The translations under genes and the position numbers were made by a program. Shown here one piece after another: positions 12,461-61,984 of a DNA stretch of 62,012 nucleotides. The DNA comes from an uncultured Candidatus Saccharibacteria bacterium. GTDB taxonomy: Bacteria; Patescibacteriota; CAZHWT01. Position 1 is the stretch's first letter, and each line of letters begins with the position of its first letter. The notes under the pieces are model-generated. The model was not told the DNA's origin. It worked only from the letters and a program-made list of their open reading frames with translations, and searched no databases. The stretch is taken from positions 1-62,012 of the forward strand of contig CAZQWH010000005.1 in assembly GCA_964597145.1 (NCBI GenBank), in the 5' to 3' direction.

Positions 12461-12464
12461 CCTT

Positions 12465-12520
12465 CCAAAGTCCAAAGTCCAAAGTCCAAAGTCCAAAGTC
12501 CAAAGTCCAAAGTCCAAAGT
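12465..12520. repeat. heptamer tandem array (CCAAAGT)x8
   Basis: Eight perfect units, followed by TCCCC and a promoter-like site upstream of the PIF1-like helicase gene. Confidence 0.95.
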
Positions 12521-16394: not shown

Positions 16395-16418
16395 TGTTAC
16401 GTAACATGTTACGTAACA
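16395..16418. repeat. tandem pair of the perfect 12-nt palindrome TGTTACGTAACA
   Basis: Read directly. A near-identical 24-mer occurs at 55791-55814. Confidence 0.9.
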
Positions 16419-21185: not shown

Positions 21186-21238
21186 CGTATTTCGTATTTC
21201 GTATTTCGTATCCTGCATCCTGTATTCTGTATTCCTGA
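21183..21238. repeat. heptamer array (TTTCGTA)x4 then TCCTGCA TCCTGTA TTCTGTA TTCCTGA
   Basis: Read directly. Confidence 0.9.
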
Positions 21239-27985: not shown

Positions 27986-27990
27986 CCTTC

Positions 27991-28046
27991 CACAGTCCAC
28001 AGTCCACAGTCCACAGTCCACAGTCCACAGTCCACAGTCCACAGTC
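27991..28046. repeat. heptamer tandem array (CACAGTC)x8
   Basis: Eight perfect units, followed by CAACCTCCCCC and a promoter-like site upstream of the 28093 ORF. Confidence 0.95.
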
Positions 28047-28092
28047 CAACCTCCCCCTTTACGTACTCTATTCAACCCGGTAATCTTATCCC

Positions 28093-47886: not shown

Positions 47887-50709
<2,823 letters not shown>

Positions 50710-50741: not shown

Positions 50742-50769
50742 TTACAATTAAAATCCATTACCAGATACC
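50742..50769 (+). repeat. 28-nt motif TTACAATTAAAATCCATTACCAGATACC, copy 2
   Basis: See 43634-43661. It runs directly into the CCAGATA array. Confidence 0.85.
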
Positions 50770-50809
50770 AGATACCAGATACCAGATACCAGATACCAGA
50801 TACCAGATA
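50761..50809. repeat. heptamer tandem array (CCAGATA)x7
   Basis: Seven perfect units ending 10 nt before the atpC start codon. Confidence 0.95.
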
Positions 50810-50819
50810 CCTACCCGCT

Positions 50820-52397: not shown

Positions 52398-52914
52398 AGA
52401 ATGCGGAATACGGGATGCAGGATACGGAAATAATTAACTCGTTTTCTGGAAGGCTTTAATCAATCCAAGAATAAGTTTACTAACTCGCGAGCTTTGGTTG
52501 GCTAAGAGCCCGAATTGCTCTGTATTTAAATAACCCAGGTCTCTACATATTAGTAATTGATTTTGCACTTCTTTGATTGAACCGTAAGCAATAAAGAGAA
52601 ATTGCACCTTCTCTTTATTGGATAGCCTAGCGAATCCCTCGGCAATATTACTAGTTATCGAAACAACTGCTCGCTGCAACTGGTCGACAAGATTATACCT
52701 TTCGCTGTTTGGTAACACTTTAAGTTCTTTGTAGACGAGCAATACGAGTTTATGCCCTTCTTGCCAGGCAACCAGGTCAGTAAATGAATTGAGTTTTGTG
52801 CTTTTCTGCTCTGATGACATGGGCCTACTATATACCTTTGGTCAATACCGCATCCTGATTTCTGTATTCCGCATCCCATATCCCATATTCCCGTATTCCC
52901 GCCTCCCGCATTCT
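52398..52914 (-). mobile_element. cassette: four-helix-bundle gene flanked by inverted heptamer arrays
   Basis: Left GAATGCG GAATACG GGATGCA GGATACG (52399-52427). Right CCGCATC CTGATTT CTGTATT CCGCATC CCATATC.. (52848-52914). Perfect 11-nt inverted pair ATGCGGAATAC / GTATTCCGCAT. Confidence 0.5.
52434..52820 (-). CDS. four-helix-bundle protein (23S rRNA IVS / Avd-like family)
   Basis: 128 aa. DLVAWQEGHKL..LPNSERYNLVDQLQRAVVSITSNIAEGFAR..GSIKEVQNQLLICRDLGYL. Confidence 0.8.
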   Translation of the reverse strand: MSSEQKSTKLNSFTDLVAWQEGHKLVLLVYKELKVLPNSERYNLVDQLQRAVVSITSNIAEGFARLSNKEKVQFLFIAYGSIKEVQNQLLICRDLGYLNTEQFGLLANQSSRVSKLILGLIKAFQKTS

Positions 52915-53036
52915 AGCTACATTCAAAAACAACACCGCACCATTAACCCGCTACAACAGCTAATTAACATATTGACAAGCAAGCAAGAACTTGTCATCAT
53001 GGAACAAGCAGGCGTTTTGCCTGGCTGATTTCAGTT

Positions 53037-55306: not shown

Positions 55307-55441
55307 ATGACTAAGCAGCCCCGTGTTTACGTCTTAACTAATGCCACTCGATGTGTGCTTTATGTTGGTGTTACTTCAAACTTAGCCAAGCGCATATTTG
55401 AGTATAAGAGCAGTGCTGCCCCCGGATTTACTCAAAAATAG
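55307..55441 (+). pseudogene. GIY-YIG nuclease gene remnant (premature TAG, 3' part lost)
   Basis: Encodes MTKQPRVYVLTNATRCVLYVGVTSNLAKRIFEYKSSAAPGFTQK, then TAG where the paralogue at 59676-59921 has Y (GFTQKYHVH). Downstream sequence has diverged. Confidence 0.55.
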
Positions 55442-55678: not shown

Positions 55679-55790
55679 ACTTCTCAAATTAAACAGAACT
55701 AAAAGTTTTTGATTCCTGCTTGCGCAGACATGGTAATGAAATAAAAAGATTGCCACGTCGTCACCACTCCTCGCAATGACAGCGAGTTGA

Positions 55791-55814
55791 TGTTACGTAG
55801 CATGTTACGTAACA
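55791..55814. repeat. TGTTACGTAGCA-TGTTACGTAACA tandem palindromes
   Basis: One mismatch relative to 16395-16418. Confidence 0.9.
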
Positions 55815-55817
55815 AAA

Positions 55818-55910
55818 GATTCTATCTCTCCACTTCGTTTCGTTCCAGAATGACTTACATTATTAGAGATTGCTGTACTACCTTCGTCAAAGGCCGACAG
55901 GCGCAATGAC
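55818..55910 (-). repeat. two reverse-orientation hairpin modules
   Basis: GATTCTATCTCTCCACTTCGTTTCGTTCCAGAATGAC (55818-55854) and GATTGCTGTACTACC..GGCGCAATGAC (55868-55910). Confidence 0.8.
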
Positions 55911-55934
55911 GGATTAGTATAAGCCAGAAGATGG

Positions 55935-56424
55935 GGTATGGAATTTAGGATGTAGGATACAGGAGATAGTATTTAGTAGCTAGGATTTGGTTTTGAATGA
56001 TTTGATTAATCCGTGCAATAGTTTGCCCACAACAATCATCTGTTTTTCTAAAGTAAGGTATTGTTCGCTAGAGATGTATCCAAGGTCTTTTGCTATTGTT
56101 AACTGGTTTTCAACCTCTTTAACTGATCCTAATGAAATGTAGAAGAATTGAATTTTTCTTTGAATGATTGTCGAGTAAATCCCTCGGCAATATTACTCGT
56201 AATAGAAACGGCGGCTCGCTGCAATTGATCAACCAAGTTGTATTTTTCTGAGTTTGGTAATTTAGATGTCTCATTATAAATTTGCAGCACTAATTTATGA
56301 CCTTCCTGCCACGCAATGAGATCTTTAAATGAATGTAGTAATCCCTTATCTGTGGTTAACTGCATGCAGATATTTACACCGACTAGTCAAGCACACTACA
56401 TCCTACATCCTAAATTCCATATCC
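55935..56424 (-). mobile_element. cassette: frameshifted four-helix-bundle gene flanked by a perfect 22-bp inverted repeat built from heptamers
   Basis: TATGGAATTTAGGATGTAGGAT (55937-55958) and its exact reverse complement ATCCTACATCCTAAATTCCATA (56400-56421). Confidence 0.6.
55980..56365 (-). pseudogene. four-helix-bundle (IVS/Avd-like) gene with a frameshift in an A-run
   Basis: The N-terminal 70 aa align with the ORF at 52434-52820 (DLIAWQEGHKL..NLVDQLQRAAVSITSNIAEGF). After KEK the homologous continuation IQFFYISLGSVKEVENQLTIAKDLGYIS..LIKSFKTKS is in another frame, with its stop at 55980. Confidence 0.65.
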
Positions 56425-56449
56425 TAAAACCAGCTCAGCTGGTTTTATA

Positions 56450-56478
56450 TTGACGCTTGCTTGCTCTATTGGTAGACT
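56450..56478 (+). promoter_or_regulatory. sigma70-like promoter TTGACG-17-TAGACT
   Basis: A second candidate, TTGACA-17-TACTAT, lies at 56496-56524. Both are upstream of the CscA-like gene. Confidence 0.45.
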
Positions 56479-56582
56479 GATAAAGCAGGCCCATGCTTGA
56501 CAGTGTCTCTGGGGATAGCTACTATGTTTATATAGAGCCGATATCAAGAGACGGACCATTATTTATTTTTTATAGGAATATA

Positions 56583-57530
56583 ATGAAAAAACCCTTCCTC
56601 CTCGCGTCTCTGCCCACCGCACTTATTTTTACCTTAGTTTTAAGTCTCATTTCTCCGGTATTTTCCAATCCTGTTCGTGCCCAAGCCGAAGGCGGTACTC
56701 GGATCGGTATTTCACCGGTAACGTTCAATTTAACTGCCAATCCTGGTGATACCCTAGATCAGGTTATTAAAGTTAGGAATGATGCGGCAGCTACTCAACA
56801 AATTACCATAGAAGCGGAAAACTTCACGGCCGTTGGCGAAGAAGGTCAGGTGGCATTGACTGATGAAGATACTAGTTTCAACCTGGCTAGCTGGATAGAG
56901 TTTGAGAGTAGCACCTTTGTTCTTGGTAGTGGTGAAGAAATTCAGGTTCCGTTCCTCATTCGAGTTCCGGGCAATGCGGAGCCAGGTGGTCACTACGCCA
57001 GTGTATTTGCCCATGTCGGCCCGGTAAGTCCAGATGGATCGGGTTCAGCAATTGGCCAAAAAATTGGCTCATTAATACTTTTGCGCGTAGCTGGTGATGT
57101 AGAAGAATCTGCGTCGGTAGAATCATTTGCAGTTGGCAAGTTCGATCCTGGACAACCAGTGCCTTTCGAGATAAGGGTCAAGAACCAAGGCTCGGTGCAT
57201 ATCCGCCCTGCAGGATTCGTGACAATTAACGACTTTATGGGTAATAAGGTTAAGGATGTTAGCATTGAAGATAGCAATATATTCCCTGGAGCAATTCGGA
57301 AGATACACGCAACTTGGGAAGACCCTGGATTTATCGGCCGGTATACGGCCAATGCCCTGATGTACTATGGCGATACTAACCAACAGTTGACTGCCACCAC
57401 CACCTTCTGGATCATCCCTTGGAAAACGGTTGGAATTGTGGCTGGTGCAGCTCTGGTTGTCGTATTGATCCTCTGGTTTGGCCGCCGACGAATTGGCCGA
57501 TCTATCAAAGCTTTGGTATCCGGGAGCTAG
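56583..57530 (+). CDS. DUF916/DUF3324-like (WxL-interacting, CscA-like) surface protein with a C-terminal TM anchor
   Basis: ATG at 56583 (MKKPFLLASL..). PGNAEPGGHYASVFA and IFPGAIRKIHATW motifs. C-terminal TM helix plus RRRIGR tail. Promoter-like sites at 56450-56478 and 56496-56524. Confidence 0.55.
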   Translation: MKKPFLLASLPTALIFTLVLSLISPVFSNPVRAQAEGGTRIGISPVTFNLTANPGDTLDQVIKVRNDAAATQQITIEAENFTAVGEEGQVALTDEDTSFNLASWIEFESSTFVLGSGEEIQVPFLIRVPGNAEPGGHYASVFAHVGPVSPDGSGSAIGQKIGSLILLRVAGDVEESASVESFAVGKFDPGQPVPFEIRVKNQGSVHIRPAGFVTINDFMGNKVKDVSIEDSNIFPGAIRKIHATWEDPGFIGRYTANALMYYGDTNQQLTATTTFWIIPWKTVGIVAGAALVVVLILWFGRRRIGRSIKALVSGS

Positions 57531-59550: not shown

Positions 59551-59590
59551 AGTCGTAGGTGGGAGATCGGAGATAGAAGATCGATAACTC

Positions 59591-60021
59591 GTCATTGCGA
59601 GGAGTGGAGCGACGTGGCAATCTTGCATATAATCTACTCGTCATCGCGAGCGCAGTACGGCAATCCTAGTTAGAGTTATTGAGTTAACTTCTGGTACAAA
59701 TCTTCCCAAAGTGGGTTAGCTTGCTCAATCAACCGTAGCTTCTTTTCCCTCGAGCCAGCCTTAAGTTGCTTCTCCCGTTTAATGGCAGACTCGATGTCTT
59801 CAAATACTTCAAAATAAACTAATTTGTGGACATGATATTTTTGAGTGAAACCTACTATTGAATTTGATCTGTGTTCAAAAATTCGCTTAGTTATATTACT
59901 GGTTACGCCAATGTACAACACGCAGCCAGTTTTATTTAGTAATTAATATAAACATAGGATTGCTTCATAACTGAGATTTTACTCCAGTATGGCAAGATTG
60001 CCACGCTACGCTCGCAATGAC
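59591..60021 (-). mobile_element. GIY-YIG gene flanked by inverted GTCAT..GCAATC hairpin modules
   Basis: Left: GTCATTGCGAGGAGTGGAGCGACGTGGCAATC (59591-59622) and GTCATCGCGAGCGCAGTACGGCAATC (59640-59665), both +. Right: GATTGCCACGCTACGCTCGCAATGAC (59996-60021), -. Confidence 0.5.
59676..59921 (-). CDS. GIY-YIG nuclease family protein (N-terminal strand appears frameshifted off)
   Basis: 81 aa from a GTG: LYIGVTSNITKRIFEH..KYHVHKLVYFEVF..AIKREKQLK. The expected N-terminus (ATG at 59955, MFILI..) is in another frame. Confidence 0.6.
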   Translation of the reverse strand: MLYIGVTSNITKRIFEHRSNSIVGFTQKYHVHKLVYFEVFEDIESAIKREKQLKAGSREKKLRLIEQANPLWEDLYQKLTQ

Positions 60022-60236
60022 GGCATTATTTTACCTCTTTTTTGGCAATTTTGGCGCAGAGAAGAAAATCCTTTTTGCTCAGTTTTTCGTTAGTCTTTAA
60101 ATAATTCATGCATATATTTAAAATTTTTAATAATTCTAATTTGTTTTGAATTTCTGTTTTCAAATTTTGAATTTTATTCACAATGCTTGCCCGCTATTGG
60201 TTATCTCTATATACTAACTTTATATATTGTTTTCGA

Positions 60237-61845: not shown

Positions 61846-61984
61846 GAGAATACAAAATACAGGATGTGGAATGCAGTAGTAATGAGGTTCCTGCACCCTG
61901 CGCCTTCTGTTTGGCTTGTCGTACTTGTTTCAGTTGTCATCCTGAACTTGTTTCAGTTGTCATCCTGAACTTGTTTCAGGATCT
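61846..61984. repeat. degenerate heptamers, then a tandem duplication of the 22-nt unit TTGTCATCCTGAACTTGTTTCAG
   Basis: GAGAATA CAAAATA CAGGATG TGGAATG (61846-61873). GTCATCCTGAACTTGTTTCAG occurs twice, the second copy closing as ..TTTCAGGATC (61925-61984). Confidence 0.8.

Follow-up and report, generated by a model that had tools for sequence, protein, structure and literature searches.

The 62,012-nt stretch of DNA analysed here (the window), from an uncultured Candidatus Saccharibacteria bacterium, carries three paralogous cassettes in which a gene for a small four-helix-bundle protein is set between inverted arrays of 7-nt units. We focus on the third of these, copy 3, a unit of 490 bp in which the gene lies on the minus strand and is interrupted by a single-nucleotide deletion. 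The right arm of the unit, which is the 5′ arm of the coding strand, consists of four heptamers on the minus strand (56397-56424) with a perfect core at 56400-56421. A spacer of 34 nt (56366-56399, minus strand) leads from this arm to the ATG and contains a -10-like TAAATA element 5 nt ahead of the start codon; a scan for the sigma-70 consensus gave no promoter for the copy 3 gene and called only the tandem promoters of its neighbour. The left arm, the 3′ arm of the coding strand, spans 55934-55958 with a perfect 22-nt core at 55937-55958. It is part of an array of seven G[TAG]A[TG]NNN units on the plus strand (55941-55989) that covers the stop codon and the final codons of the gene.

The 22-nt core, TATGGAATTTAGGATGTAGGAT, has exactly two occurrences in the window, at 55937-55958 on the plus strand and at 56400-56421 on the minus strand. 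There were no further copies in the window at up to three mismatches, none arose in 100 shuffles, and no exact match was found in the JGI metagenome contigs. A repeat finder extended the inverted repeat to 25 nt with one mismatch (55934-55958 and 56400-56424). Read unit by unit, the left array on the plus strand is GAATTTA, GGATGTA, GGATACA, GGAGATA, GTATTTA, GTAGCTA, GGATTTG, and the right array on the minus strand is GGATATG, GAATTTA, GGATGTA, GGATGTA. The original prediction, that the two arms are exact reverse complements built from 7-nt units, is thus correct in both respects. Its proposal that the 22-bp ends provide the clearest boundaries for the family did not hold up, because the 22 bp are just the outermost 3.5 units of longer heptamer arrays and therefore mark no uniquely clean family boundary.

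The match between the arms of copy 3 exceeds what shared heptamer composition provides. We compared it with a cross-locus null in which the upstream arm of one locus is paired with the downstream arm of another, drawn from 78 heptamer-flanked relatives, and its score of 45 was equalled in 0.3% of 6000 such pairs. The arms pair as the terminal stem in both the minimum-free-energy and the centroid fold predicted for either strand, with 22 perfect base pairs, or about 27-31 bp when wobble pairs are included (fold z-scores of -2.5 and -3.8 for the two strands).

The gene enclosed by these arms is broken at 56153-56157 (minus strand), a T5 run on the plus strand where the coding strand reads AAAGAAAAATTC. 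A single nucleotide has been deleted from the conserved KEK codons AAA GAA AAA, leaving A5 where A6 is needed. Upstream of the lesion there remains an open reading frame (ORF) of 78 aa (56365 to 56129, minus strand, ATG at 56365), and the C-terminal half of the gene (IQFFYISLGS...KSFKTKS, 55980-56152, minus strand), IQFFYISLGSVKEVENQL...LIKSFKTKS, is read in another frame to a stop at 55980-55982. Adding one A restores ...SFKEKIQFFY..., in agreement with the family consensus KEKxQFYY. That a frameshift in an A-run separates the N-terminal part from a C-terminal half running on to position 55980 had been recognised originally, with a call to guard against assembly error, and the same sequence recurs in contigs assembled from several independent runs. 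In one soil study, five Logan contigs of different runs match the window at 100% identity wherever they overlap 55800-56600; the whole interval is contained in three of them, and the other two begin at about 55926-55928. Four further runs each gave one contig across the region, at a depth of 9-26 and with zero variants, and 8 contigs are on record with the 78-aa product. A frameshift that is identical in contigs of separate runs did not therefore arise by chance in a single assembly, although this support comes from contigs and not from raw reads, so that a minor intact allele is still possible. The two Logan contigs that begin late (L002 and L004) break 6-8 nt outside the left arm, where the others read through, and these breaks could stem from thin coverage or from a boundary of the cassette that varies within the population.

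When the missing A is supplied, the protein matches Pfam PF05635 (23S rRNA-intervening sequence protein) with an E value of 6.4e-38 and 129.7 bits (cut-off 33.8) and covers model positions 1-106 of 106. It matches NCBIfam TIGR02436 (four helix bundle protein) at 6e-36 and 123 bits (cut-off 24) and resembles the solved toroidal pentamer 2GSC_A (XCC0516; E = 6.3e-19) as well as 2RLD_A (E = 5.5e-06). These profile and structure-sequence matches assign the predicted product to the PF05635/TIGR02436 four-helix-bundle 'S23p' proteins of 23S rRNA intervening sequences (IVSs). Copy 3 thus passes the full-domain profile threshold of the family and lacks an intact reading frame. The repaired copy 3 scores 129.7 bits against PF05635, higher than the 116.5 and 124.5 bits of the two intact copies in the window, and the lesion is therefore recent. 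We conclude that the copy 3 gene was inactivated recently by a 1-nt deletion. The description of this ORF as degenerating was right in that the gene is inactivated, but it is hardly degenerate, with a single A missing and a Pfam score above those of both other copies.

A search of 5.8 billion proteins returned more than 1200 relatives, of which those with names belong to the Patescibacteria, also called the candidate phyla radiation (CPR). The closest are at most 63% identical, apart from a paralogue in the window (65%) and the truncated product of copy 3 itself, and no intact orthologue of copy 3 was present among database proteins. Weak matches to PF22296 and NF033474, models of the Avd/bAvd proteins, raised the question of an accessory protein of a diversity-generating retroelement (DGR). 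This identity was rejected: NF033474 gave 29.2 bits where 80 are required, and no reverse transcriptase is found among the genes at 45-62 kb, which comprise ATP synthase subunits, surface proteins and a GIY-YIG fragment. The two intact paralogues had no match among the PADLOC defence models.

Both intact paralogues share the anatomy of copy 3, each with heptamers of its own. Cassette 1 (47898-48472, plus strand) lies between atpG and atpD, and its arms at 47898-47923 and 48447-48472 (26 nt, matching at 85%, TAGTATY units) enclose a gene of 133 aa (47963-48364, plus strand). Cassette 2 (52398-52920, minus strand) has arms at 52399-52431 and 52858-52890 (33 nt, 79%, GGATRCG/GAATACG units) around a gene of 128 aa (52434-52820, minus strand). 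Their proteins are 47% and 65% identical to that of copy 3, respectively, and the three are mutually 41-65% identical. Cassettes 2 and 3 are both antisense to their two neighbours and have a spacer of 34-37 nt ahead of the ATG.

We extended the analysis to 80 loci with relatives from GTDB species-representative genomes, nearly all of them metagenome-assembled genomes of Patescibacteria, in which 75 genes had sufficient flanking sequence. Of the 75 genes, 42 had a period-7 array within 100 nt upstream, 50 had one within 100 nt downstream and 29 had both, and periods of 5, 6, 8 and 9 gave counts of 0-2 in the same flanks. Against a background of 0.023 arrays per 100 nt in the same loci, array density adjoining the PF05635 genes is about 20-fold higher. 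The arms mostly abut the gene, with a median gap of 8.5 nt to the ATG and of 8 nt past the stop codon. The inverted-repeat score of the flanks has a median of 25.5 compared with 16 for cross-locus pairs (Mann-Whitney p = 4e-23), and 44% of cassettes score at least 29, a level that 5% of similarly sized control ORFs from these loci attain.

The arrays follow a rule of orientation. Upstream units are of the form G[TAG]A[TG]NNN on the coding strand (GTATnnn, GAATnnn, GTAGnnn and GGATnnn) and downstream units are their reverse complements, as seen for 121 of 136 arrays, with the opposite arrangement in 2. Because the arrangement is an inverted repeat, a purine-rich array lies 5′ on either strand, and the arrays point inward. 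Moreover, the arms of one cassette change together yet differ between cassettes. The same core is present in both arms at 37 of 43 loci (17.5 expected) and the consensus heptamer is identical at 14 (2 expected); at the variable heptamer positions the arms agree in 92 of 129 cases, where about 60 are expected even when shuffling is confined to core classes. None of 5000 permutations matched these values. Possession of inward, inverted heptamer arrays is therefore a property of this gene family in Patescibacteria. The cassettes are mostly co-oriented within gene strings and operons, with 88% of gene pairs that include a cassette co-oriented compared with 74% of other adjacent pairs. We also considered whether the heptamers are Shine-Dalgarno or -10-like elements. 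This suits some units only (cyanobacterial AGGAGAT and AGGTGAT, and some TAGAAT/TAGTAT), and as a general explanation it was dropped because the dominant units GTATTAA, GAATTAT and GTAGTAA do not fit it.

The same anatomy recurs in sampled plasmids of cyanobacteria and Riemerella and in viral contigs. A tblastn search of a plasmid collection found PF05635 genes chiefly in Nostocales, with others in Picosynechococcus, Stanieria and Riemerella, and the plasmid and viral sample with this anatomy includes Nostoc, Calothrix, Anabaena, Picosynechococcus, Stanieria and Riemerella. Arrays were present on both sides in 12 of the 22 plasmid and viral loci. At eight plasmid loci that we inspected, the region ahead of the ATG carries G-rich heptamer arrays and the region past the stop codon carries their C-rich complements, with the units GGGAAAA, AGGGTGT, AGGAGAT, CAGGAGT, AGGTGAC, AAGGTTY and GCAGAGG; seven of these eight genes are co-oriented with both neighbours, from which the arms are the only separation. 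In a plasmid of Picosynechococcus PCC 7003 (L098) and one of Anabaena sp. 90 (L100) the cassettes are located within CRISPR-Cas operons, at cas10-cmr3 and cas6-cas4, co-oriented and with heptamer arms alone between the genes.

Cassettes are present or absent among close relatives. Four relatives with 92-62% AtpG identity show no PF05635 gene at the atpG-atpD junction that holds cassette 1. In those with 66% and 62% identity, atpD begins 187-208 nt past atpG; in those with 92% and 77% identity, atpG is followed by other heptamer arrays and dispersed repeats, and the 365-430 nt available contain no PF05635 gene. The boundaries of this site cannot be defined, because the relatives diverge directly past the atpG stop codon. 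For the gene beside copy 3, a GIY-YIG gene and dispersed repeats replace the cassette upstream of the orthologue in a relative with 70% identity, and a relative with 60% identity has a PF05635 gene at a different junction of the same gene cluster.

Immediately beyond the right arm lies a hairpin, AAAACCAGC-TCA-GCTGGTTTT (56425-56449), which is part of the conserved region upstream of the neighbouring gene for a 315-aa surface protein (56425-56525). There the hairpin precedes a tandem pair of sites resembling promoters, TTGACG-17-TAGACT and TTGACA-17-TACTAT, an arrangement that is kept in the relatives compared (L092, 1-215; L090, 4860-5000). In L092 the hairpin in the equivalent place has another sequence and still pairs. 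On the other side, 500 nt from copy 3, is a truncated GIY-YIG ORF of 44 aa (55307-55441); an intact GIY-YIG gene accompanied by analogous repeats is present in L090. A dispersed repeat of about 36 nt (…gattgccacg…ctcgcaatgac…) occurs at 55746-55782, 59588-59624 and 59995-60030 and on many contigs of the same metagenomes; in inverted orientation it flanks a GIY-YIG gene at about 59660-59950 (minus strand), and together they make up a second type of cassette for a small gene. At two distant sites, 16395-16418 and 55790-55813, there are tandem duplicates of the palindromic 12-mer TGTTACGTAACA or of a close variant, and the end of the window holds a perfect 23-nt direct repeat in 2.5 copies (ACTTGTTTCAGTTGTCATCCTGA; 61923-61979).

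Heptamers are also widespread in the window outside the cassettes. Its intergenic DNA has about 40 period-7 tandem arrays, many of them unconnected with four-helix-bundle genes, and perfect arrays of about 8 copies lie at 1-55, 12464-12520, 27989-28048 and 50759-50811 (with units CAGTCTA, TCCAAAG, TCCACAG and TACCAGA among the four). The intergenic DNA of the relatives L086 and L087 is likewise made of heptamers. At 980-1041 and 21187-21234 there are adjoining, inward-facing array pairs with no gene inside and with arms that are not mutually complementary; they may represent cassettes that have collapsed or stand empty, or else footprints. The AtpD ORF (48496-50709) encodes 737 aa, about 250 aa above the usual length, in an extension that holds period-7 DNA arrays (50058-50587); this looks like a trait of the lineage, as AtpD of the relative L089 has 718 aa.

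The closest known counterpart of copy 3 is the 23S rRNA IVS with an S23p ORF, as found in Coxiella burnetii, Leptospira and Brucella (PMC4990558), and in both the ORF belongs to PF05635. The IVS of C. burnetii is 428-444 nt long, and its terminal inverted repeats pair into a 28-bp stem with the S23p ORF in the loop; tandem GACAGAT heptamers of variable copy number lie directly ahead of the S23p ATG, RNase III cleaves at the first repeat, and the ORF is under reductive evolution (PMC4990558). In CPR bacteria, PF05635 ORFs (23S_rRNA_IVP) are found within insertions of both 16S and 23S rRNA (PMC11270868). The likeness thus extends to size (about 430-490 nt), to a terminal stem of 22-28 bp that closes a loop containing the ORF, to heptamers that adjoin the ORF, and to decay of the ORF with retention of the ends in elements that are regarded as selfish and horizontally transferred (PMC4990558). 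The original prediction, which described a third four-helix-bundle cassette, was right that this is one of three in the window and overlooked this system. Copy 3 has the stem enclosing an S23p ORF and the tandem heptamers beside that ORF. It differs in position and in the build of its arms: it is not inserted in rRNA but lies between protein-coding genes, antisense to both, and each of its arms is a heptamer array with a conserved core. Consistent with this position, no Rfam family, rRNA included, reached its gathering score anywhere in the window. On the 23S rRNA IVSs, PMC4990558 cites Ralph and McClelland (1993).

Three further classes of sequence share some of these features. Stand-alone four helix bundle genes (TIGR02436; 2GSC XCC0516 and 2RLD) are small, single-domain genes of about 125 aa, abundant in Patescibacteria, Cyanobacteria and Bacteroidota, and copy 3 clearly belongs with them by sequence; in the literature that we searched they are annotated as isolated, and bracketing by inverted arrays and placement in operons are absent from the annotation. 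Convergent heptamer simple sequence repeats (SSRs) have been described in Xanthomonas genomes, with 70-75 pairs of GGGAATC arrays and no link to S23p, alongside GGGGAYT repeats of the short tandemly repeated repetitive (STRR) type in Nostoc and Anabaena, and their potential to form stem-loops or G-quadruplexes was discussed (PMC4692102). Like these, copy 3 has tandem, intergenic 7-nt units that converge on opposite strands near the ends of an ORF, but its units are A/T-rich (G-W-A-K-NNN) and incapable of forming G-quadruplexes. The Avd/bAvd proteins of DGRs form a homologous four-helix-bundle fold family with weak PF22296 and NF033474 matches, but the score falls far short (29 bits compared with a cut-off of 80) and no reverse transcriptase, template repeat or variable repeat adjoins copy 3. 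A full-text literature search found no description of a general association between heptamer arrays and PF05635 genes, which is not proof of novelty.

Taken together, these comparisons indicate that copy 3 should be classed with the PF05635 cassettes of IVS type, here outside rRNA, and not with terminal inverted repeat (TIR) transposons. We favour the explanation, in which we place about as much belief as doubt, that such cassettes are gained and lost patchily and that their arms pair into a substrate for RNase III. The mechanism is proposed by analogy. RNase III cleavage has been demonstrated for the IVSs of Leptospira and Salmonella. A host transcript would read through the cassette, the arms would pair as a long duplex with the ORF in the loop, and RNase III would cut this duplex as it does in the IVSs of Coxiella, Leptospira and Salmonella, freeing the cassette RNA from the flanking host RNA. 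Because the cassette RNA would be separated from that of the host, its insertion in an operon or in rRNA could be tolerated. The build of each arm as a heptamer array would let the duplex form in several registers and survive slippage. Spread and loss would depend on a mechanism that is not encoded in the cassette and is not classical TIR transposition. Copy 3 has lost its ORF only just now, with its arms still perfect, in parallel with the Coxiella IVS, which keeps its stem as the S23p ORF decays.

Several observations weigh against this explanation. More than half of the surveyed loci (56%) score below 29 and so have weak arm complementarity, and some of the flanking arrays may be genomic background, given the genome-wide abundance of heptamer arrays (33 of the G[TAG]A[TG]NNN type in the window, 1.4 expected). 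Mismatches between arms are mostly transversions, and G:U-compatible changes are not in excess on the sense strand (34 vs 32, 47 vs 46; 48-60 loci), so that complementarity could be kept up in the DNA itself or through gene conversion from one arm to the other. RNase III does not need the polar core that is strongly conserved in the arrays (G-W-A-K in Patescibacteria, G-rich elsewhere), and this core hints at sequence-specific recognition. Cassettes 2 and 3 are antisense to their neighbours with a spacer of 34-37 nt, and their own mRNA may therefore omit the 5′ arm. Finally, no RNA runs containing the copy 3 locus were found.

The main rival explanation is that the arrays are iterated binding sites, in DNA or single-stranded RNA, for the encoded pentamer or for a host protein; pairing of the arms would then be incidental, and their inverted arrangement could serve autoregulation, insulation or recruitment. 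We consider this unlikely. In its favour, the four-base core is conserved and polar across the whole phylum (121 of 136 arrays compared with 2), the arrays keep strictly to a period of 7, the arms lie right against the start and stop codons, and arm mismatches carry no wobble signature. The type of heptamer core also follows protein similarity, weakly but significantly (59.3% compared with 57.5% identity, p = 0.001). The related Avd/bAvd proteins are nucleic-acid-binding pentamers, although the match of copy 3 to the bAvd model is weak. However, the arms agree at variable positions as well, far beyond what a shared core would need, which argues for pairing or for copying between arms. In addition, the heptamers are wholly different between phyla despite clearly homologous proteins, and the arms of copy 3 are perfect although its gene is broken.

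A mobile element acting at the DNA level would be a less likely account, and we regard it as improbable. Here the ends would be recognised, or would form hairpins, for a recombinase supplied in trans, as for MITEs (miniature inverted-repeat transposable elements), repetitive extragenic palindromes with their RAYT transposases (REP/RAYT) or IS200-type elements, and the gene would be cargo. Copy 3 resembles MITEs and other non-autonomous TIR elements in being short, intergenic and patchy with a perfect terminal inverted repeat; cassettes come and go at conserved gene junctions, they occur in viral contigs and plasmids, and the gene-less array pairs at 980-1041 and 21187-21234 are possible footprints or empty sites. 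Unlike MITEs, copy 3 holds a conserved protein gene and has no near-identical copies. No target-site duplication is present at its ends, as the outer flanks are AGCCAGAAGATG and TAAAACCAGCTC and no direct repeat abuts the arms, and no transposase lies in or beside the cassettes. Each of the three copies has arms of its own, and neither the window nor the JGI metagenome contigs contain the 22-mer at any other place, so the arms are not transposase-recognition TIRs common to a family; the protein identity of only 41-65% among the copies also speaks against a recent burst. We therefore rejected a classical TIR transposon. The view of copy 3 as a mobile or selfish cassette survives in part: it is dispensable, patchy and cleanly bounded by inverted ends, but the target-site duplications and further copies of the 22-mer that had been sought as support are lacking, and its ends are not shared between copies.

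The possibility that the cassettes have no function as such, with arrays arising throughout these genomes by polymerase slippage and their inverted symmetry following incidentally, for instance when the template is switched from one array to another close by, carries still less weight with us. Heptamers are, according to a passage of PMC4679880 that cites this, the commonest long SSR class in bacteria, and the many arrays in the window that have no connection with four-helix-bundle genes, like the heptamers of the intergenic regions of L086 and L087, favour this reading. It accounts poorly for the roughly 20-fold density of arrays beside PF05635 genes relative to the rest of the same loci, for the difference between 44% of cassettes and 5% of control ORFs in flanking inverted repeats, for the inward orientation rule (121 to 2), and for the same anatomy in phyla with genomes that are not otherwise heptamer-rich and within rRNA IVSs. 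Least credible of all is that the copy 3 gene is functional, either because its frameshift is an artefact of sequencing or assembly or because ribosomes bypass it by slipping -1 on A AAA A: although the lesion is one base in a homopolymer of an otherwise pristine gene, and by its sequence the P-site tRNA-Lys could re-pair on AAA after a -1 slip, the frameshift is identical in contigs of at least 5 to 8 independent runs (depth 9-26), a run of A5 is on the short side for homopolymer errors of Illumina sequencing and does not reach the length that transcriptional slippage needs, an X XXY YYZ heptamer is absent, and the best database protein is only 63% identical, with no near-identical intact form.

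A broader and bolder reading, which we put forward as a speculation and consider improbable, is that PF05635 genes with inward heptamer arrays form one ancient, phylum-spanning class of cassettes that invade operons and rRNA. The classical 23S IVSs would be its rRNA-resident subset, and many of the STRR and convergent heptamers of cyanobacteria and xanthomonads would be arms or footprints. The arrays would be functional ends on which an Avd-like pentamer acts. One possibility within this reading is that the pentamer, together with a host or DGR reverse transcriptase, acts on the excised stem-loop RNA, so that mobility would proceed through an RNA intermediate.

Genes annotated as 'four helix bundle protein' are among the commonest unexplained small genes of CPR bacteria and cyanobacteria. 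To our knowledge, IVS elements and S23p ORFs have been known since about 1990 without an accepted function or mobility mechanism. The main interest beyond the single locus lies in the wider regularity, that inward, inverted heptamer arrays are a family-wide companion of this gene. Paired inverted arrays surround PF05635 genes in intergenic DNA, in essential operons (atpG-atpD), in cas operons, on plasmids, in viral contigs and, from the literature on Coxiella, in 23S rRNA. This links three things that have been described separately: IVSs, stand-alone four-helix-bundle genes and convergent heptamer repeats. For annotation, it accounts for many of the odd heptamer-rich intergenic regions in Patescibacteria. 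The question of what these cassettes do is now testable in culturable hosts, among them Nostoc, Picosynechococcus, Riemerella and Xanthomonas.

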